From: a virus
Lineage: Duplodnaviria > Heunggongvirae > Uroviricota > Caudoviricetes
Direction: 5' to 3' (one strand)
Virus record (IMG/VR): IMGVR_UViG_2718218304_000001
Location: 50,160 to 114,159 of that record
Length of the DNA: 64,000 nt
Shown here in pieces: positions 4,141-28,195 of this stretch (positions are counted from its first letter, which is position 1; each line of letters starts with the position of its first letter). A program made the translations under genes and the position numbers. The notes below the pieces were generated by a model, which was not told the origin of the DNA, searched no databases, and saw only the letters and a list, made by a program, of their open reading frames with translations.

Positions 4141-4560
4141 TTACAACTTCTTAGCGCCCTTAAGTAGTGCGCTACGTACAAATTGAGCCGCTTTTTTCAA
4201 AGTTTCTTCACTGGTTTCACAGACAATCGGATCTTTCCACTTACCTGACACAGTGTTGAGAATATTGATTTGGTTGCTATCCAGACAAACAGAGATATAA
4301 AGCACTGTGCCACCAGCCAGCATCAAATGCATAGGAAACAGAGGCTTTTTACTGCCTTCACTGAACTGAGACATGGCGATGTTAATGGCTTCACCCACTT
4401 GTGTACCAACAAGCCCCTGCGCAGTTTCGAATATGGCACGAATAGCCAGACGAGCCTCTCGATCGCTCATAAGCGACCGGGAATGTTCGTCCGCTACACG
4501 AATCAAAGCCTCTGTTGTTTTCCGATCCAGTTCATCTTCAAGCAACATTTCACTAAACAT
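4141..4560 (-). CDS. hypothetical protein
   Basis: 139-aa ORF in operon context; no motif recognised. Confidence 0.45.
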   Translation of the reverse strand: MFSEMLLEDELDRKTTEALIRVADEHSRSLMSDREARLAIRAIFETAQGLVGTQVGEAINIAMSQFSEGSKKPLFPMHLMLAGGTVLYISVCLDSNQINILNTVSGKWKDPIVCETSEETLKKAAQFVRSALLKGAKKL

Positions 4561-4621
4561 TTTTTATCCTTAACCCATTTTGAGAGTTTTATTGTCGCAA
4601 TGTCGAAGAGGCGAACAATTT

Positions 4622-5266
4622 CTAATGAACGGTCACTCGGCCACAGAACCGGTTTTCTATCTTTTCTACAGCGTTATCTAGCATTCTCATCACTGATCTG
4701 GCTCTTGCTTCAACCGTGCGATATCGGTTGGAAACGACGAAGGTTTGCAGATCTCCCCTTTGCGGATGCAGGTGAATTTTTGTCAGTTCCCCGCACATCA
4801 ACGCATCAATACGAGCGACATACAGACGGTCTAATGATGCTCGTTGTGATCGCAAGTAATCTCGCTCTGAGAGAGCGACTCCCGGGCGTAAGCCAGCAAT
4901 GGCGTTAAAGTTTGAAATAGCAGTTTTGTGGCAAAACTTTTCGATATCGAGGGCTAACTCAATACACCGATCTTCATTTGTATGGCCGACCAAATCCAAC
5001 GTGTAGGCCATAACATCAGCAGGTGTGCGATCGATAACAAAGCCTTCAACACCACGCGTAAGTAGCTCTATATGCTTTGCTATTTCCATTTGAATCTGAA
5101 GCCGCTCATATAGAGGCATAGAATCACCTACTCGAACACCGAGGCGGCTCATCAAACTTCCGACACCAGCATCCACGTAAGGGATTCCGTAATGTTTGTC
5201 GATATATTTAGCCAGGGTTGTTTTCCCACTGCCCTGAGCACCAGTGATCCCAATCCGGTAATCCAT
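4622..5266 (-). CDS. P-loop kinase, putative deoxynucleoside monophosphate kinase
   Basis: Walker A GAQGSGKTT near N-terminus; sits with DHFR and ThyA; loose resemblance to phage dNMP kinases. Confidence 0.5.
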   Translation of the reverse strand: MDYRIGITGAQGSGKTTLAKYIDKHYGIPYVDAGVGSLMSRLGVRVGDSMPLYERLQIQMEIAKHIELLTRGVEGFVIDRTPADVMAYTLDLVGHTNEDRCIELALDIEKFCHKTAISNFNAIAGLRPGVALSERDYLRSQRASLDRLYVARIDALMCGELTKIHLHPQRGDLQTFVVSNRYRTVEARARSVMRMLDNAVEKIENRFCGRVTVH

Positions 5267-5742
5267 TACGACCTTCTGTATACGATCTGCGAAAAGCCAG
5301 GCTCTTCCTCGCTGGCTCGTTGGGTATAAGCTGTTTCAACAGGCACAAAGCCTAAGTTACGCATCATGCTTGCCGGGAAGAATGCATCGGCGTTTGGTAC
5401 ATCAACGCCGATGTGGGAGAGCCAAATCTCTTCAACATGCGGCATGAATAGCGAGTAAATTTGTTCCCCGCCAATCACCCACACAGGCTCTGGTAATCGC
5501 AACACATCATCCACACCAGCAAGGTAGAATCCATTTGGTACAAAGCCATGAGAGCGCGTCAAAACGAGGTTATGACGCTCTGGAAGAGGGCGTTTGAGAC
5601 TTTCCATCGTTTTACGTCCCATAACGACAGTGGCGTTTTTGGTGAGTCTCTTAAATAGCTTCAGATCGGTAGAACAACGCCAGGGGAGTTCATTCGCTAT
5701 GCCGATCTCATAGTTACGGCCAACAGCAGCGATCATCTTCAT
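5266..5742 (-). CDS. folA: dihydrofolate reductase
   Basis: DHFR-like N-terminus (IAAVGRNYEIG...LPW), VIGGEQIY motif; 158 aa. Confidence 0.85.
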   Translation of the reverse strand: MKMIAAVGRNYEIGIANELPWRCSTDLKLFKRLTKNATVVMGRKTMESLKRPLPERHNLVLTRSHGFVPNGFYLAGVDDVLRLPEPVWVIGGEQIYSLFMPHVEEIWLSHIGVDVPNADAFFPASMMRNLGFVPVETAYTQRASEEEPGFSQIVYRRS

Positions 5743-6152
5743 TTGCTCACCTCATAGATGACCGGTCGATGGTGAGAGTCGGCTAAAGCGGCACGGAGTC
5801 GAGGATCGTGCACCAGCGCAGCGATAAGCAGATCGCCTTTATGCTCCGCTAATGTGCGCTTAATATGCTTCTCATAACTGGTGCCATTCGGTACGAGATG
5901 AAGCCAGTCATAATCAACGCCAAAATCTTTCAGCCATCGTTTAGTTGGCGCTTCAAGAGTTTCAGAGCGGCTACTGATAAGCACCACTTCAGCCCCTGAG
6001 CGAGCAAAACCACGCAACATACGGCTGGTGGGGAAAATGAGTTCATCACCGGCAATGAGCTGGCCTGCATCCGCGTCAGATACTGATTTACGATGGCTGG
6101 CATTTGCCAGCACACCTTCAATTTCGCATAAGACATACATACCTCTTGCCAT
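5739..6152 (-). CDS. HAD-like fold protein with atypical motif I (putative nucleotidase)
   Basis: Track ORF 5739..6200 overlaps ThyA; ATG at 6152 (MARGMYVLCEIEGVL) sits 1 nt after the ThyA stop. CEIEGVL resembles a degenerate HAD DxDGVL motif. Function uncertain. Confidence 0.35.
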   Translation of the reverse strand: MARGMYVLCEIEGVLANASHRKSVSDADAGQLIAGDELIFPTSRMLRGFARSGAEVVLISSRSETLEAPTKRWLKDFGVDYDWLHLVPNGTSYEKHIKRTLAEHKGDLLIAALVHDPRLRAALADSHHRPVIYEVSK

Positions 6153-6153
6153 A

Positions 6154-7284
6154 TCACACCGCCACTGGAACCTTGATCCACGGTAGAGGGTCATAGCCAA
6201 GAATTAAAACCTCGTCCCATTTGAAATCATCCAACTCTGACCATTCATGAGGGAAAATAACGACCGGATCTGAATGCTCTGGAGCCTGTCGCTTCATTAG
6301 CTCACACACACCTTCCATGTGGTTGTTGTACAAATGCACGTCAAAGCCAAAATGCACAAATGCACCGGCCATGTGACCCGTAATCTTCGCGAGAAAATGA
6401 GTGAGAATGCCATAGCCAGCAATATTGAATGGCATACCAACAAAAGTGTCTACGCTACGCTGTACGAGGCAGGAGTTGAGGATGCGTTTGGGGATTCCAA
6501 GTTCATCCAGTTCAGCTTCAGTAACACTGCCGTCCATCTCCAGATCGTATAGCATCTTGGTGTAGATAGACTCGTAACCGAGGCGACTGTGTTGAAGACC
6601 AATGTCAGTTGCCATCGTTAAACGGGTTTCAAAATCCAGCTCACGACTCCACAAAGAGAAGACAAAGTGGCAAGGTGGCAGTTTCATATCCTCAAGCTCG
6701 CCTACGTTCCATGCGTTAAGCATGATGCGACGATCGGTAGGGTTCGTGCGCAGTGTATCGACAATACGCTGTAGCTGATCGATTTCACGGGACAGCACTA
6801 CGCGATCTTCACTGATACCCAGGTATCCCTCGACTTTGTACCCGCGTTCACGGAAAGTATCGATCTTGCTCAGATATTCACTATGGCTCACGATGCGGGT
6901 ATCTTCCCATCGACGCCACTGCTTACCGTAAACCGGCCCCAAATCGCCATTCTCATCGGCCCATGCATCCCAAATCTTAACGCCGTTATCCTTGAGAAAT
7001 TGGATGTTGCCCGTGCCTTTCAGATACCACTCAAGTTCGACAAGTAGTGGCTTAAGATTTACCGCCTTTCCAGAAATAAGCGGCACAGTCCCACCAGTAA
7101 GCATGTAGTAAGAGGGAACGTAGCAGGTGCTTAAAGTACCAGTGCCTGTGCGATCATCAGCCTGCACGCCGCTTTTAAGCACCGTCTCAATAACTTTTGC
7201 ATACGATGCGTTTGTTACCTGACCGTTCGTATGCTCACGATTCAAAAGGAGTGACACAAAAACCTCACAAAGATAAGTAACCAC
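6154..7284 (-). CDS. thyA: thymidylate synthase (ThyA type, extended)
   Basis: DRTGTGT, NAWN, LPPCH and DTFVGMPFNIA motifs; 376 aa, longer than bacterial ThyA; N-terminal start uncertain (ATG lies inside a palindromic motif). Confidence 0.85.
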   Translation of the reverse strand: MVTYLCEVFVSLLLNREHTNGQVTNASYAKVIETVLKSGVQADDRTGTGTLSTCYVPSYYMLTGGTVPLISGKAVNLKPLLVELEWYLKGTGNIQFLKDNGVKIWDAWADENGDLGPVYGKQWRRWEDTRIVSHSEYLSKIDTFRERGYKVEGYLGISEDRVVLSREIDQLQRIVDTLRTNPTDRRIMLNAWNVGELEDMKLPPCHFVFSLWSRELDFETRLTMATDIGLQHSRLGYESIYTKMLYDLEMDGSVTEAELDELGIPKRILNSCLVQRSVDTFVGMPFNIAGYGILTHFLAKITGHMAGAFVHFGFDVHLYNNHMEGVCELMKRQAPEHSDPVVIFPHEWSELDDFKWDEVLILGYDPLPWIKVPVAV

Positions 7285-12013: not shown

Positions 12014-12583
12014 TCAAATGAGAGACTTAAGAACATCGCGCACCTGGCGGAACTGATCTGTTTGCATACCGGTATGGATGGCAGCCACCGCATCAGCCAA
12101 ATGTTCGTTTTTGTTCACGAGAACATCCTGTCCAGATTGCTTACGACGCAGCCACGGTGCTTTAGGGTGTTTTTTCGTAGCCCACTGGATAATCTCTTCT
12201 TTCGATGTAGTAAGTTTATTGCCGACAAAATGCTTGATTTCGTTTGGAGTAACCTGGATCAATGGCTTATCCACACACGCAAGTACACCGATACAAATAC
12301 CGTAAGACGTCTGCGAACGAGAGTTTTGGCTCCCAACCGGTAGCTCACAAAAAACCATATTTGCCTTATCAATGATTGGCTTCGCAACACGCCATATTTC
12401 ACTGGCGCGGCGCAGATCGTCACTGTTCACACGAACGGTCTTTTTGTTACTCCCCGCTTTAGTCTCAACAAGAGTAAGGCCGTGAATCTCAAGTTCGTCC
12501 GTTTCAAGGTCTAAAGTGCCCACAGCAAGCCCAAAGTTGCTCATAGAGGGATCAACACCAACTACGCTGATTTTTTTACTCAT
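12014..12583 (-). CDS. RuvC-like Holliday junction resolvase (RNase H-fold)
   Basis: N-terminal VVGVDPSMSNFGLAV (catalytic Asp), typical of phage RuvC-like resolvases. Confidence 0.6.
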   Translation of the reverse strand: MSKKISVVGVDPSMSNFGLAVGTLDLETDELEIHGLTLVETKAGSNKKTVRVNSDDLRRASEIWRVAKPIIDKANMVFCELPVGSQNSRSQTSYGICIGVLACVDKPLIQVTPNEIKHFVGNKLTTSKEEIIQWATKKHPKAPWLRRKQSGQDVLVNKNEHLADAVAAIHTGMQTDQFRQVRDVLKSLI

Positions 12584-12592
12584 ATAGTCTCC

Positions 12593-13336
12593 TTACCATG
12601 TTCCCCATATAGGGTTTTCCAATAATCTCGCCTCCAACGAATTGGCTACTATTGCCGTTTGCAACGTTGGTTGGGGATAGTTTGCAAAGTCTGAATACTC
12701 ATTTTCCTGCGTGACACGTTTATCTACGGCATGTTTAACGCCACTTGCTATGAAATGACGCATGATGCCCAACAGCCTCCGACTGTCTGCACTATCGTTT
12801 GCTAAAACATGAGGGAGCTGAAGTTCGATTTCTACCATTTCTCCATACTTACCAACAAACTGTAGTTTGTCCGCACTGTACTTTTTATCCCTCCTTTGGA
12901 TAAGGAAACCAGTAAAAGCATCACCTGGCGATGCCAAACTATCCACCCGCTTATTGGCAAGTCGAATAAGGTTCGTGAAAGCCATACAGAGATGCGCATC
13001 CATTGCCCCAAAGAACCCTTCGCTATCAATGTTAAGATCTTCAGTTTCATGGGTTGCGATAAACCCAGGCCCGACGTTGGGGAGATATCCCCCCTCAACA
13101 AAAGGATTAATCAGGATCGGCGCAATACATCCAGGTGGTAGTGATTTCAAACTTTGCATCAATGGTGTCTCGGATATTAGACCAAGCAACGCGGCGAATT
13201 GCACTCCGTCAATATTGTTGCTGCCCCACAGAATACGTGGAGCCGCACCATTGGAGGTATGCCCATTGATCAGTTTTATCGACTGCATCACTGCAAATAC
13301 CTGCAAAAACTGCGAGCGGCTTAATTTAAACGACAT
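12593..13336 (-). CDS. hypothetical protein
   Basis: 247-aa ORF immediately downstream of the SbcC-like gene (4-nt overlap); no motif recognised. Confidence 0.45.
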   Translation of the reverse strand: MSFKLSRSQFLQVFAVMQSIKLINGHTSNGAAPRILWGSNNIDGVQFAALLGLISETPLMQSLKSLPPGCIAPILINPFVEGGYLPNVGPGFIATHETEDLNIDSEGFFGAMDAHLCMAFTNLIRLANKRVDSLASPGDAFTGFLIQRRDKKYSADKLQFVGKYGEMVEIELQLPHVLANDSADSRRLLGIMRHFIASGVKHAVDKRVTQENEYSDFANYPQPTLQTAIVANSLEARLLENPIWGTW

Positions 13337-15242
13337 AGCTGCGCCCCTCTTTAACTTCCAGCGTAATAGTTTCCCGGAACCACGACTTCATCTCTTTATG
13401 GGAGATAATCAGCACAGTACCTCGCTCGCGAGCTTTGGACTCCAGAATACCCATGAGGCGTTCAAGACCGGCTGTATCGAGTGCATCGTCAATTTCGTCG
13501 CCGATAAACAAATCGATGTTTTTACTCGCCCGGTTACTAACCAGATCCTGCAATGCCAAAGAACACGCAATGCGAACCTTCCGCTTCTCACCACCAGAGA
13601 GGGTTTGGAACGACTTACTTGAACCTTTCTTCTGCACACTAATGTTGAATTTGTCGCGATACTCACCTTTTTTAGTGACATCCATCGTCGACCACTCAGC
13701 AGTAATATTCCCGTCAGACAACGTATTGAGATACTCGGCAGTGCGTGTATTCAGGAAAGGCGTAACAGACGTCAAAATATGAGAACGCACCCCGGCAGGA
13801 GAGTAGACCTGACGAGCTTTTTCCAATAGCAACGTTTGTTCCTGAATAGCCTTCAACTCATCTTTTAAGGACTTGAAGGTAGACTTACTGGATACCAGGT
13901 TATCTTCGTGTCTGGCGATAAGAGCAATAAACGGATTAATCTCTTTTGATATACGATCGACCTCAGTACGAGCACGAGTCACAAGAGACTCAATAGCAAC
14001 AACCTCCTTCTCACGATGACGCAAAGATGAGAGTTGTTTCGTAAGCTCTTCAATCCGGGCAATGATAGCCGTTACATCAGGTGTCGTTTTAACAAGGGCA
14101 GACTCAATGCTTAACGCTTTCTCAAGATTCGTTTTGTGTTTAGCCATTGCCTCTGCAAGTGTCTTCGCCTGACCAATTTCCTGACGTGCTTGTTCAATGA
14201 AATTCTCCTTCACCGTTGATAGATCTTCTTCGCAGTAGGCTTTGCCACAAGTAGGGCATGGTGATCCCACTTTAGTACCAACCTCTTCTGCTTTGGTCTT
14301 AAAATTACGCGCGCGGTTCATTGCATCAGCCTGACTATTTTCTGTAGCTTTGATGCTTGCCCGAATATCAGTTATCGCACCACGAACTTTGAGCAACTTG
14401 GCGTCATGTTCTTCTTTTGAGGCTAACTTTTTGCGCTCACTTTCGATTGCCTTCTCGGTATCACGTATCTGTTCGGGAAGAGTGCGGATCTCAAGTTCAA
14501 CTTCCGTTAACTCAACTTCGGCACTGGCCAGCCCAGCCAGGGCATCGTCATAACGTTTAGAACGCTCTTGCTCCCATGATTCAGAGGAGGCTTTCGCTGA
14601 CTCAATTTCTGACTGTGTTGCCTCAATGGTCGAGATTGTCGACTCCAATTTGGTTTTAACCACATCCATACGTGCGGCAGCTGCATTAGCTCGCTCACGA
14701 GCAATAGCGTAGGCGCGTGTCAGTCTGTCAACGCCAGCGGCTTCTTCTACGATGGTTTTGAGGTTTTTGTCGGACATTCCAGGTAAATCTGGCATAGCTT
14801 CTTGGCTCGCATAGATGGAAGCCATGAAAACCTCTTTAGATGCACCGATCAGACGCTCGACGAACTCCTGCGTCAGCGCATCTTTGCCTTTCGTCATATC
14901 GCCATCTTCACCACGAACGATAAGACGATTTTTGAACTCTTTGTGTTTACGGTGACGAATGATTGCGTATCTCTTGCCTTCATCCTCGATGGTTACTGCA
15001 ACACGACAGTTCTTTTCATGGTCGGTAGACAACACATCGTCACCCTTCACACCATGAGCTGTTTCGCCATAAAGACACCACATCAGGCTATTCATTAGAG
15101 TTGACTTTCCAGAGCCATTACTTGATGCGGAACTATCATCACTATTAACACCCTGAATGAGCACTAAACCACGCTGATCTAACTCGACCTCCGCGCTGGC
15201 GATAGCCATAAAATTCTCAACCTGGAGCTTTAAAAACTTCAT
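13326..15242 (-). CDS. sbcC: SbcC/Rad50-like ATPase
   Basis: N-terminal Walker A GSGKST, long coiled-coil, central CPTCG zinc hook, C-terminal signature/Walker B region. Confidence 0.8.
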   Translation of the reverse strand: MKFLKLQVENFMAIASAEVELDQRGLVLIQGVNSDDSSASSNGSGKSTLMNSLMWCLYGETAHGVKGDDVLSTDHEKNCRVAVTIEDEGKRYAIIRHRKHKEFKNRLIVRGEDGDMTKGKDALTQEFVERLIGASKEVFMASIYASQEAMPDLPGMSDKNLKTIVEEAAGVDRLTRAYAIARERANAAAARMDVVKTKLESTISTIEATQSEIESAKASSESWEQERSKRYDDALAGLASAEVELTEVELEIRTLPEQIRDTEKAIESERKKLASKEEHDAKLLKVRGAITDIRASIKATENSQADAMNRARNFKTKAEEVGTKVGSPCPTCGKAYCEEDLSTVKENFIEQARQEIGQAKTLAEAMAKHKTNLEKALSIESALVKTTPDVTAIIARIEELTKQLSSLRHREKEVVAIESLVTRARTEVDRISKEINPFIALIARHEDNLVSSKSTFKSLKDELKAIQEQTLLLEKARQVYSPAGVRSHILTSVTPFLNTRTAEYLNTLSDGNITAEWSTMDVTKKGEYRDKFNISVQKKGSSKSFQTLSGGEKRKVRIACSLALQDLVSNRASKNIDLFIGDEIDDALDTAGLERLMGILESKARERGTVLIISHKEMKSWFRETITLEVKEGRSYVV

Positions 15243-15471
15243 ATAACACCTCTGATACCGTGTGTTAGCTTTTGGCCTTCTTTCAATCTGAACTCCGTAT
15301 GCGCCGGGAAGGATCTGCGCCTCAATACGCCTTTTCTTGTTAACCTTCCAAGATAAAACGCTACGGGATTTCCTTGTGGCGGGTAGGGCTTGTGAAACAT
15401 CACCGTCTGGCCTCGTTCAAGTCTTTTCATCGTGATGGCAAAGTCTCGAAAGCTCCCATAACGACTTTGCT

Positions 15472-16557
15472 TCACACAGCCTCCGAACTCTCCGCTTCGG
15501 TGAGGATTTCCTGACACAAAATATCCAATTTGCTCAGATCAAATCCGCCGTCAGTATCGTGGACAATCTTGCAATAAGCAGATACCGACTCTCCCAGGCT
15601 ATCGATTTTGCTGGTTTCAGTTGTGCTGGCTGTCCCTTCCATCATTGATGACTTACGGATGAAGTTGCACACGACACCTTTTGCACCCATTGTTTTGAGG
15701 ATGTTCTGGTACTTAATGCCTTCTTCATCGTTCTCAATTACGGCGCGGAAACGCACGTAGTTGCCGCGAATTTGGTCATCAGCAACATCATCTTCCAGGT
15801 TAATGAATTTAGGCGCACTGGTTTCGTAGTGACTGAAACTGCCGTCCGGGTTTACGATCATGTAGCCAGCCAGAGATCCAACATCTCCCCAATTTTGATG
15901 AGTCAGTGCACCGACACTGATAACTCCAGGAATGACCTCTTTGTGGTTGTGGTAATGCCCACTAAGCACGAGACGAAAGCCGATATCCTTTAACTCCTGC
16001 GCATCGATACCGACGTCAGGCATTGTTGGAATGGCTTTGTTAATGGATGTATGGATAACAACGTCATGATTATCACCTTCTACGCTCTTACGTAATGCTT
16101 TCAGATCGCTGATAAGCTCCGCATGATTGTTACGCCAGCTAATCAGGTGGACAGTCACATCACCAATTTTTATTGAGTGTGGGCGCTTGCCACATACGAT
16201 TACCACGCCGATAGAACTCAGCGATGCTGCTGCGTTGGCGCTATATACTGAATCGTTGGTTTCAAGATCGTGATTACCGGCCAGCATTACTACTGTCAGA
16301 TCAAGCTCGTTGATAATCCACTTGTACGTTTCAGTTACGTAATGCAAAACAGAAGGGGACACAGTTCCTCGGACGTGAAATGTATCACCGGCAACCAACA
16401 TGTACTTACAACCGGCCTTCTTCATGGCGATGGCTGCTTCTTTCGTTGCTTCCAACTGTATTTCAAGTCTGGAGTTAAGCCCCTCAGCGTTCGTCGTGGA
16501 GAACGCATCCCATTTGTGGTAGTGGCAGTCAGAAATGACGCCGTATGGCAAAGTCAT
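15472..16557 (-). CDS. sbcD: SbcD/Mre11-like nuclease
   Basis: Calcineurin-like phosphoesterase motifs (SDCHYH, GDTFH, GNHD); paired with the SbcC-like gene. Confidence 0.8.
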   Translation of the reverse strand: MTLPYGVISDCHYHKWDAFSTTNAEGLNSRLEIQLEATKEAAIAMKKAGCKYMLVAGDTFHVRGTVSPSVLHYVTETYKWIINELDLTVVMLAGNHDLETNDSVYSANAAASLSSIGVVIVCGKRPHSIKIGDVTVHLISWRNNHAELISDLKALRKSVEGDNHDVVIHTSINKAIPTMPDVGIDAQELKDIGFRLVLSGHYHNHKEVIPGVISVGALTHQNWGDVGSLAGYMIVNPDGSFSHYETSAPKFINLEDDVADDQIRGNYVRFRAVIENDEEGIKYQNILKTMGAKGVVCNFIRKSSMMEGTASTTETSKIDSLGESVSAYCKIVHDTDGGFDLSKLDILCQEILTEAESSEAV

Positions 16558-25809: not shown

Positions 25810-26241
25810 TCAACGGGGAGTAATAAAGCGTTCAGAGCCTAATCGCTCTAATTCAACGATGGCCATCTTTGACGCCTGAACGATCATGTCTCTGCGATGC
25901 GAAAAGGCGGCGACAGCATGTTTGTATATGTCTGCGATGTGCCGTGCTTCATCCAACTTCTGCCGTTTAGACAGATACTGTGGGTTTGTTTTAACCTTAG
26001 CGTCCAGTACAGACTCGTTGAACTTAATGCCGTTCATACTCAAGTTCTTACGCTCTGTGTCGTATAGCTTTGCTTCAACAGCTTCAAGGTTAAGTTTTGC
26101 CTCTGCGACATCTCGATCTGCCTGCGCTAGTTTTGACCCATACTCCATTAAAAGCCGTGGCTGTTTACGCCATACTTCCTCAAGGTTGTCGCGGTCGAAC
26201 TCCAGATCGGCCATGATTTTAGAAAAAATATCAGTGTTCAC
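25810..26241 (-). CDS. hypothetical protein (possible recombination mediator by position only)
   Basis: 143-aa helical ORF heading the SSB-FEN-recombinase gene string; size and position reminiscent of UvsY, no motif evidence. Confidence 0.4.
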   Translation of the reverse strand: MNTDIFSKIMADLEFDRDNLEEVWRKQPRLLMEYGSKLAQADRDVAEAKLNLEAVEAKLYDTERKNLSMNGIKFNESVLDAKVKTNPQYLSKRQKLDEARHIADIYKHAVAAFSHRRDMIVQASKMAIVELERLGSERFITPR

Positions 26242-26449
26242 TCTAATAGGTTCCTACTTATAAAATCTGTATCAATTATATCAAACAGAGAACGGGTTTA
26301 TGGCGTCATGTCAACTTTGTTCAGGGGAAAATATTGAGATCACCGAAGATAATTAGTTGTCTTATTTTGGTAAGCTGTGCTGACCATCTTTAGGTCACAT
26401 ACATGAGATGGATGGGGGTGTGGCATGAACGGATGAAATTCAGTCGCCG

Positions 26450-26478
26450 TTGACAGATGTCAACACTGTGAATAGAAT
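26450..26478 (+). promoter_or_regulatory. sigma70-type promoter with palindromic operator over -35
   Basis: TTGACA - 17 bp - TAGAAT, then GGAGG and ATG at 26496; -35 lies inside palindrome TTGACAgaTGTCAA. Confidence 0.55.
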
Positions 26479-26495
26479 ACTATTATCGGAGGCGA

Positions 26496-26720
26496 ATGAA
26501 GCAACATCCGAATAAGCATATTCAAGCAGCCATTGACTATGCATTAAGTAAAGGCTGGATCTGGGTAGCAGCTGGTGGTGCTGCACATTGTTTTTGCAGA
26601 CTGCGATGCGGTAATCCAGAAGGTGAACACAAAACTCACCAAATGAGCGTATGGTCGACTCCGGGTAATCCCGAAAACCATGCCAAACAGATCAAACGAA
26701 TGGTTGATCGTTGTAAATGA
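26496..26720 (+). CDS. small Cys-rich protein, possibly HicA-like fold
   Basis: 74 aa; weak pattern similarity to HicA/YcfA (KGW...GGAAH...), four Cys; assignment tentative. Confidence 0.35.
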   Translation: MKQHPNKHIQAAIDYALSKGWIWVAAGGAAHCFCRLRCGNPEGEHKTHQMSVWSTPGNPENHAKQIKRMVDRCK

Positions 26721-26780
26721 TTTCAAGGCGGCATTAGCCGCCTTTTGCAGAAACTGTCCAACTATCTTCAAAGGAAAACT

Positions 26781-27344
26781 ATGGCGCTTTATAACTTCAC
26801 TCTGACGCTCTCAGGCGTATCGTATGAGACGGAAGGACTGGAAGACGCGCTGTACCAAAACGGCTGTGACGATGCGCTAATTTGCGCATATGGAAACTCC
26901 GTCTATGTAGAATTTGACCGCGAAGCACAATCACTTGATGCAGCTATCGCATCTGCGGTCGACAATATTGAATCAGCCGGTATCGGTGCAATTGTTGAAT
27001 CCGTCGACTCGGCTCTTGTGGGCTTAAGCGATATCGCGGAACTGACAGACCTGTCTCGCCAGGCAGTGGCGTTGCTCAAAGACGGTAAGCGCGGAAGCGG
27101 CGACTTCCCTTGCCCTGTACAACGCATAAAAGGCCAGTCTCCTCTCTGGGATTGGGCTGATGTGGCTGAATGGCTCATGAATAACGGACGACTTAAAGAG
27201 GGCGATCAAATTGTCCAAAATGCCCGAACTTTGAGTAAATGGAATCTGGCGCTTCGAAACAGCGTCTCGAAAGATTTCAACGAAATAGAGCAAATTGCGG
27301 AGAAACTGATTAAACGCCGCAAAGATATTGCGAAATGCGCATAA
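26781..27344 (+). CDS. HTH-containing protein (possible antitoxin/regulator partner)
   Basis: Track ORF 26745..27344; ATG at 26781 follows AAAGGA. Predicted helix-turn-helix around LSDIAELTDLSRQAVALL. Confidence 0.45.
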   Translation: MALYNFTLTLSGVSYETEGLEDALYQNGCDDALICAYGNSVYVEFDREAQSLDAAIASAVDNIESAGIGAIVESVDSALVGLSDIAELTDLSRQAVALLKDGKRGSGDFPCPVQRIKGQSPLWDWADVAEWLMNNGRLKEGDQIVQNARTLSKWNLALRNSVSKDFNEIEQIAEKLIKRRKDIAKCA

Positions 27345-27673
27345 TGATGCCCGCCAATTGGCGGGCATCTGTTCTCTGTAAAGGTGTCTGGCATCGTCTG
27401 GTTCGTTAACGTTTACTAAACCAATGGTGACAAAAATTAGTTATCTTTGAAAAATAAAGGTTGCATGAAAAGAAGGGGTATGCGTTAATAGCATCGTTGG
27501 TTTGCAAGACAGACCTTATGTAAGCAGTTTTAGTAAAGCAGTCTCAGTTCAGTGTTATCTTCTGATTTCCCTTCTTCGTGAGTCTCCTCCTTAAGTGCCT
27601 AAGTAAGTCCCAATCTATACAGATCAAATTCTCGCCGCACTATGTGGCTCACAAAATTAAGAAGGTAATATCT

Positions 27674-27889
27674 ATGTCTAATAAAATGACTGGTTTAGTA
27701 AAATGGTTTAACTCTGATAAAGGCTTTGGCTTTATTTCTCCTGCTGATGGCAGTAAAGATGTTTTTGTACATTTTTCGGCAATTCAGAGTAATAATTTCC
27801 GCACTTTGGAAGAAGGCCAGCAGGTCGAATTCTCTATCGAGAATGGGGCTAAAGGCCCAGCAGCAGCAAATGTCGTTGCTCTAAGCTGA
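27674..27889 (+). CDS. cold-shock protein (CspA family)
   Basis: [23 protein letters not shown]...[12 protein letters not shown]1/RNP2 motifs of the CspA family; ~71 aa; long 5' leader upstream. Confidence 0.85.
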
Positions 27890-28168
27890 TTCAACGCTGA
27901 TGATCCTCATTTCTACAATAACGAAGACGGTGTAAGCCTGAGTGGATAGATTTGTAGGATTGTACAAGTTGAATAAATTAGCATGGTAAGGCCATGCTAA
28001 TTAAATCGACACAACGGCCAGTTTATTCCATAAAAGTGAATTGCCCATTGTGGCGAAATGCGGGGTTGCCGCATGAATAGTCAAAGGCAGAAGCTAACTG
28101 CCGGCATGGCAAAACAAAGTGCGTAAGAGGAGTGACTTCCTCAACAAGCGCCATAATTCTTTATAAAC

Positions 28169-28195
28169 CCGCCAACAGGCGGGTTTTCTTTATTA
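28169..28195. terminator. rho-independent terminator hairpin (CCCGCC-AACA-GGCGGG + T-run)
   Basis: Read directly; located between the csp and dnaE 3' ends. Confidence 0.5.

Follow-up and report, generated by a model that had tools for sequence, protein, structure and literature searches.

What is the function of a small two-gene operon that lies on the plus strand among the minus-strand replication and recombination genes of a phage-plasmid? This question arose from an earlier note on the 64,000-nucleotide stretch of DNA analyzed here (the window), which described a Cys-rich protein followed by a helix-turn-helix protein and proposed a toxin-antitoxin or small regulatory or defence module. 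At 99.7% identity, the window matches Escherichia phage Cyrano (OV696614), a phage-plasmid of the SSU5 type known in E. coli LF82 as plasmid pLF82. The Cyrano phage-plasmid is present at ~5.5 copies per cell (PMC9928086). Around the operon are genes for a UvsY-like protein, a gp32-like SSB, an exonuclease and DnaE (28193-31699). The UvsY-like gene (25810-26241, minus strand, 143 aa) is annotated as 'UvsY recombination mediator' in Cyrano, and its product had no Pfam match at E<=0.01. Of the two genes of the operon, the Cyrano record names the first (hereafter A) 'HicA toxin protein' (CYRAN_51) and the second (B) 'putative antitoxin HicB' (CYRAN_50); the RefSeq names are 'hypothetical protein' for A and 'helix-turn-helix / AlpA family transcriptional regulator' for B. 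What is already known of the pair is that one record labels it tentatively as HicAB and that the PADLOC collection gives it a candidate number; it belongs to a family without a curated entry or a described mechanism. New here are the comparative evidence for an operator, a minimal partner domain, and candidate catalytic and metal-binding residues.

We began from the layout of the operon. Gene A (26496-26720, plus strand) encodes a 74-aa protein with four Cys and six His, as the description of a Cys-rich protein had it, and is preceded by a Shine-Dalgarno sequence GGAGG (26488-26492, plus strand) that can be read directly and is kept in enterobacterial loci. Gene B (26781-27344, plus strand) follows after a gap of 60 nt and is itself followed by an intrinsic terminator (27346-27369, plus strand) with a 10-bp stem, including 8 GC pairs, and then TGTTCTCTGT. 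Upstream of A, the near-consensus sigma-70 promoter TTGACA-17-TAGAAT was found where it had been placed (26450-26478, plus strand; -35 at 26450-26455 and -10 at 26473-26478), with 11 of 12 positions matching the consensus. When both strands of the 64 kb window were scanned, this was the one site reaching at least 11/12; about 0.73 such sites are expected per window by chance, so that the promoter score by itself is not significant. Also present is the palindrome over the -35, which proved longer than first described. It is a perfect, strand-neutral palindrome at 26449-26464, with arms GTTGAC and GTCAAC around AGAT (GTTGACAGATGTCAAC), that covers the -35 hexamer together with 9 nt at the start of the promoter spacer and is predicted to be an operator. 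The sequence can be parsed either as 6-nt arms around a 4-nt spacer or as 7+7 separated by 2 nt, and its exact pattern occurs once in the window. An Rfam search of the leader and of the A-B spacer returned no known RNA.

We then asked what kind of protein A is. It had no meaningful match in Pfam or NCBIfam, and the HicA family PF07927 gave none even at E<=1; among 127 diverse relatives of A, likewise, there was no PF07927 match. Weak matches to RuBisCO_small, CagE and mycosin models were dismissed as noise. Searching the PDB sequences with profiles of both the A and the B family found no relatives, and tuber lectin matches at E ~0.04 were dismissed as chance. Protein A falls in phrog_5923, a family of unknown function. 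An exhaustive profile search (E<=1e-3) gave 698 clusters at 50% identity, the best 150 of these 698 being all strong, and a scan of 185,579 species genomes detected relatives in 303 of them, from several phyla, including Enterobacterales, Pasteurellaceae, Neisseria, Acinetobacter and Idiomarina as well as Balneolales, Chitinophagales, Planctomycetota and Verrucomicrobiota. Identity of A across phyla is 49-75%, which is unusually high for a toxin and would count against a toxin reading of A.

Structure prediction was more informative. The model of A has the dsRBD-like alpha1-beta1-beta2-beta3-alpha2 fold that characterizes HicA, and its four best structural matches are HicA toxins; the HicA-like features suspected earlier are thus visible in the predicted fold, while no HicA sequence model matches the protein. 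HicA is a ribosome-independent mRNA interferase toxin with a catalytic His in a GSH motif at the start of beta-2. Aligning 127 A sequences to 50 true HicA sequences with hhalign gave a probability of 18.9% (P 0.0012) over 25 columns only, and the A profile against four PDB HicA sequences gave 1.8%; on this comparison the 18.9% link is suggestive and falls short of establishing membership. The weak alignment sets the GW....G.x.H motif of the A family on GW....GSH of HicA, with H31 on the catalytic His. This residue, at the beta-2 start, is found in 121 of the 127 sequences, although the alignment to HicA is weak and H31 could be a metal ligand instead of a catalytic residue.

The conserved residues of A fall into two sets. 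In the column statistics of the 127 sequences, C38 and C73 are each kept in 125, and Cys occupies position 48 in 106 sequences and His in 17, an exchange that makes this position look like a metal ligand. C38, position 48 and C73 lie on the flanks of a beta-2/beta-3 insertion that is absent from HicA, and they probably form a clip holding a metal ion. The second set comprises H4, K7, H31, T55, P56 and H62, and an HPNK motif at the N-terminus is invariant; as judged from conservation, H4, K7, H31 and H62 may be the active site. We therefore describe A as a putative toxin of the HicA fold (alpha-beta-beta-beta-alpha) with a probable Cys/His metal site. The comparison defines, besides the 16-bp predicted operator, candidate catalytic residues (H4, K7, H31 and H62) and candidate metal ligands (C38, H48 and C73).

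The partner described earlier as a helix-turn-helix protein of 188 aa does carry such a domain, although its length is 187 aa, the former figure having included the stop codon. Protein B had no meaningful Pfam or NCBIfam match, the AlpA and HTH_17 models included, and matched phrog_2620 ('excisionase and transcriptional regulator') at 2e-105. Its AF2 model (pLDDT 88.7) has three parts, all encoded on the plus strand. Residues 1-78 (26781-27014) form a ferredoxin-like beta-alpha-beta-beta-alpha-beta domain, the part that is always paired with A and that may bind and neutralize it; residues ~79-135 (27015-27185) form an AlpA/excisionase-type winged helix-turn-helix, predicted to bind the operator; and residues 143-187, which with the stop codon occupy 27207-27344, form two long C-terminal helices (H143-162 and H166-186) that are a possible dimerization element. 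In the model itself, the first domain spans residues 1-75 and the winged helix residues ~82-134. The fold predictions that had been suggested for both proteins thus led to HicA toxins as the best matches of A and to an AlpA/excisionase-type winged helix in B. Neither by sequence nor by fold did B show a partial RNase H-like N-domain or a match to a HicB model, and the 'HicB' label of the Cyrano record is not supported. In one locus, of Mannheimia indoligenes, the A-B pair is followed ~2 kb further downstream by a second, divergent B-like ORF (8394-8735 of L042) that shares 39% identity with B residues 37-152. According to the models, then, the pair combines a HicA-fold putative toxin bearing a metal clip with a putative antitoxin that is not HicB.

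To see how the pair is kept, we compared 82 loci with A relatives. In 82/82 loci, which range from Enterobacterales to Planctomycetota and Bacteroidota, A is followed after 0-258 nt by a gene for the B N-domain; 77 of these pairings were found by tblastn, at distances of 3-258 nt, and five are divergent ORFs whose N-domain pattern was recognized by eye in the translations. Two small, adjacent and co-oriented genes are thus inherited as a pair, as in type II toxin-antitoxin systems. The partner consists of no more than the N-domain, 83-92 aa in length and lacking a DNA-binding domain, in Planctomycetota, Verrucomicrobiota and some Cardiobacteriaceae. These short partners identify A plus the B N-domain as the conserved core, a pattern which, judged from the comparison, would be expected of a toxin and its neutralizing domain, and they make the N-domain alone the natural minimal partner of A.

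The two genes also differ in how they decay. A is disrupted or truncated in 4 of the 82 loci, and the ORF of the B N-domain reads through in all 77 translated loci. Three of the four are Providencia loci, with a stop at W53 of A in L017 and frameshifts in A in L059 and L068; in the fourth, a Cardiobacteriaceae MAG (L045), A ends early, at 61 aa. The A gene lies at ~6001-6220 of each of these four loci. B is intact in each case, and the reverse decay, in which B is lost and A intact, was seen in no locus. Such losses of A first are few in number yet would be typical of toxin-antitoxin pairs, in which a patchy distribution on mobile elements goes together with decay of the toxin and retention of the antitoxin, as is the case here.

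We next examined the palindrome across the same 82 loci, counting as an operator any GTTGAC-N4-GTCAAC with at most two mismatches in 12. The operator precedes the A start by 39-75 nt in 59 of the 65 loci whose B has the HTH (wHTH) domain, and in 0 of the 17 whose B has no DNA-binding domain. In these 59 loci, which belong to several bacterial orders and phyla, a -10 element TAnnnT is conserved with the palindrome at a spacing of 16-18 nt, and the conservation of both upstream of A homologues shows that the motif is beyond chance. The arms are nearly invariant and the 4-nt spacer varies freely. Symmetric variants exist, GTTTAC..GTAAAC in Pasteurellaceae, Neisseria, Moraxellaceae and Balneolales and GTAGAC..GTCTAC in one locus, and these symmetric changes in two arms would fit recognition by a symmetric dimer. 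The palindrome is retained in Bacteroidota loci, in a phylum whose promoter consensus differs from the sigma-70 type, so that its conservation is not a mere by-product of the -35 hexamer. The operator-like role proposed for the palindrome is in this way supported by its conservation across phyla, seen only where B has a DNA-binding domain.

The operator is also confined to the cassette. All 50 sites with at most one mismatch in the 80 genome loci L003-L082 (~0.9 Mb) stand at A's own promoter, and the 64 kb window and the examined Cyrano stretches contain one such site each, again at the A promoter. A role of B as a global regulator was rejected, since sites only at the cassette's own promoter leave no regulon; the comparison points instead to B as an autoregulator. 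An antitoxin-type DNA-binding domain with a predicted operator over its own promoter is the arrangement of type II toxin-antitoxin systems, recognized here by comparison. In Yersinia pestis NCTC5923 (a 108 kb contig; ~5954-5969 of L012) the right operator arm is degenerate (GTTGACACGCGCTCAC, 3 mismatches) and A and B are intact; this cassette, apparently on a pMT1-type plasmid, might be derepressed owing to the degenerate arm. In an Alteromonadaceae MAG (~5926-5965 of L024), two tandem operator copies, GTTGACGTTTGTCAAC and GTTGACAGACGTCAAC, stand upstream of A instead of one.

A further element lies between the genes. The A-B spacer holds a GC hairpin (26725-26746, plus strand; AAGGCGGC-ATTA-GCCGCCTT, then TT), a possible partial terminator or RNA-stabilizing element. 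A hairpin occupies the equivalent place in most Enterobacterales loci, where the stem sequences differ, the pairing is kept and a T-run follows in some; it is absent in clades in which A and B abut or overlap. Besides the window, the loci in which such a hairpin was noted are L001-L017, L023, L024, L031, L034, L035, L037, L040, L048 and L050. It has been previously reported that in RNA-seq of the Cyrano lysogen A reaches 30x and B 14x the prophage background, both being among the 'morons' (PMC9928086). Together, the hairpin and these values suggest partial termination or differential RNA stability favouring A. A transcript ratio of this kind seems awkward for a simple model with antitoxin in excess, and to that extent it counts against the toxin-antitoxin reading.

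The distribution of the cassette appears cargo-like. SSU5 and many plasmids related to it have A-B in one shared syntenic slot. In PLSDB, 311 plasmids carry the cassette (112 from Escherichia, 82 from Enterobacter and 63 from Yersinia, Y. pestis pMT1-type plasmids included); they are mostly non-mobilizable and, among those listed, ~100-120 kb in size. Among 5,426 complete E. coli genomes, 108 have it, in every case on a plasmid. Elsewhere it stands alone between housekeeping genes (Providencia and Mannheimia), adjoins a Phd/YoeB pair in a P2/HP1-like prophage (Histophilus), or adjoins a RelE-family/HTH pair in a P4-like integrative island (Prodigiosinella). Cyrano itself also has KacT-type and RelE/ParE-type modules (PMC9928086 and this analysis). 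The GC content of the cassette (47.9%, compared with 46.6% for the window) is not atypical and gives no sign of recent acquisition.

The surroundings of the pair vary as well. At 27496-27914 (plus strand) the window contains a complete cspA-type thermoregulator 5'UTR (RF01766, 185.7 bits) and a 71-aa cold-shock-domain gene (ATG at ~27674, stop at 27889; Pfam CSD 1.4e-33), an interval that the Cyrano record leaves without annotation between CYRAN_50 and CYRAN_49. Its GC content is 38.8% against 46.6% for the window, and related phage-plasmids hold a different, 214-aa gene there, so that this slot, which closely follows the terminator of A-B, seems to be a variable site for cargo. In four SSU5-like plasmids of Enterobacter and E. 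coli (L083-L086), RecA contains an intein bearing a LAGLIDADG endonuclease, and DnaE is split in two ORFs by an HNH/NUMOD4 homing-endonuclease gene, the window DnaE being a single ORF of 1168 aa; the RecA/DnaE region genes of L083 lie at 4548-6890 and 12053-16305.

Taken together, these results make it rather probable that A and B form an autorepressed, two-gene, type II toxin-antitoxin-like cassette on an SSU5-type phage-plasmid. The cassette would be a 'moron' expressed in lysogeny, that is, a cargo unit equipped with a promoter and a terminator of its own, in which the strong sigma-70 promoter would transcribe A and then B. A would most likely be a growth-arresting RNase with a HicA-like fold and a metal-holding Cys/His clip, and the ferredoxin-like N-domain of B would bind and neutralize it. 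Through its AlpA-type winged helix, a B dimer on GTTGAC-N4-GTCAAC would block the -35, so that contact with sigma-70 would be lost and the operon repressed. If synthesis of B, presumably the unstable partner, were to stop, as upon plasmid loss or phage-induced shut-off, A would be freed, and the outcome would be plasmid addiction and/or abortive-infection defence. As a toxin-antitoxin or defence module, the cassette would help to explain the persistence of low-copy phage-plasmids, and it would represent a new antitoxin architecture for HicA-fold toxins. Many SSU5-type low-copy phage-plasmids carry resistance genes. A wider proposal is tentative, and we hold it to be doubtful as a whole: A and the B N-domain might constitute a previously undescribed toxin-antitoxin or defence family that spans phyla, in which a ferredoxin-like antitoxin domain that has no relation to HicB restrains a metal-clipped RNase derived from HicA, and which serves SSU5-type phage-plasmids (Y. 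pestis pMT1 and E. coli pLF82 among them) both for addiction and as a barrier of the superinfection or abortive-infection kind, with the hairpin setting a toxin-rich transcript ratio.

Among the alternatives, the one that survives best is a dedicated abortive-infection anti-phage system with no role in plasmid maintenance, in which infection would release or activate A. This possibility arises from PADLOC, where the adjacent genes A and B match the models PDC-M06A (PDLC04383, 1.2e-19) and PDC-M06B (PDLC04388, 1.3e-32), respectively; the same two families thus occur in the same order in candidate system PDC-M06 (Payne et al., bioRxiv 10.1101/2024.01.29.577857), in agreement with the toxin-antitoxin or small regulatory or defence layout noticed earlier. 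The cassettes on which PDC-M06 is based were embedded in BREX, DISARM or type I RM systems, and its supplement entry reads 'Assign as candidate PDC-M06', with 497 RefSeq occurrences (10.1101/2024.01.29.577857). Expression of the cassette in the lysogen, and its presence in the cargo regions of the P2/HP1-like prophage and the P4-like island, would also suit defence. However, PDC-M06 is one of 145 bioinformatic candidates in that study (10.1101/2024.01.29.577857), described by guilt-by-embedding only and without a fold, operator, mechanism or phenotype, and literature searches by that name gave nothing beyond the supplement of the preprint. In contrast to the embedded cassettes, the copy studied here is borne by a phage-plasmid, and none of the loci inspected lies inside a BREX, DISARM or RM operon. 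A fixed syntenic slot on low-copy phage-plasmids suits addiction equally. We regard a purely defensive role as unlikely; it overlaps with the toxin-antitoxin-like cassette and differs from it mainly in the selective benefit.

A second alternative is that the pair is regulatory and non-toxic, with B an autoregulated transcription factor and A a small metal-binding co-repressor or anti-repressor that causes no growth arrest. B is clearly of a DNA-binding type and its predicted operator is conserved, the many conserved Cys and His of A are what a structural metal site typically shows, the conservation of A is unusually high for a toxin, and HicA sequence models do not match A. Against these points stand the 17 loci whose N-domain-only partner has neither a DNA-binding domain nor an operator, the restriction of the operator to the cassette's own promoter, which leaves no regulon, the four loci in which A has decayed and B is kept, and the toxins that are the best structural matches of A. 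On balance, a pair of this kind is improbable. That the genes form a canonical HicA/HicB system, as the Cyrano annotation has it, is very improbable in spite of the HicA fold, the toxin-first order and the His at the beta-2 start, given that no HicA model matches A and that B is not HicB.

Returning to the toxin-antitoxin-like cassette, we compared it with the known systems that it resembles. The family assignment, called uncertain from the start, remains so, with an A that no HicA sequence model matches and a B that is not HicB. The HicAB comparison set comprised HicA of Pfam PF07927, for example from E. coli (6hpb), B. pseudomallei (6g26) and S. pneumoniae (5yrz). Unlike these toxins, A has no HicA HMM match and has an extra invariant HPNK motif at its N-terminus, an insertion of 8-10 residues between beta-2 and beta-3 that bears Cys/His ligands, and a C-terminal Cys, which together make a probable metal clip. 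The N-domain of HicB is a partial RNase H fold, whereas that of B is ferredoxin-like, and the DNA-binding domain of B is of the AlpA/excisionase type and not RHH or Xre. As is proposed here for A-B, in MqsRA the toxin comes first, one partner has a zinc site, and the C-terminal HTH of the antitoxin binds a promoter palindrome; however, the zinc site of MqsRA is in the antitoxin, its toxin is RelE-like, and neither sequence nor fold links it to A-B. In its predicted fold, the winged helix of B resembles AlpA/Xis-type and MerR-like winged-helix regulators (for example the GIsul2 excisionase, 8c3t). B differs from them in that it also contains a ferredoxin-like domain and a helical tail, its partner is always A and not an integrase, and it is predicted to act on a palindromic operator at the promoter of the cassette in place of att-site repeats.
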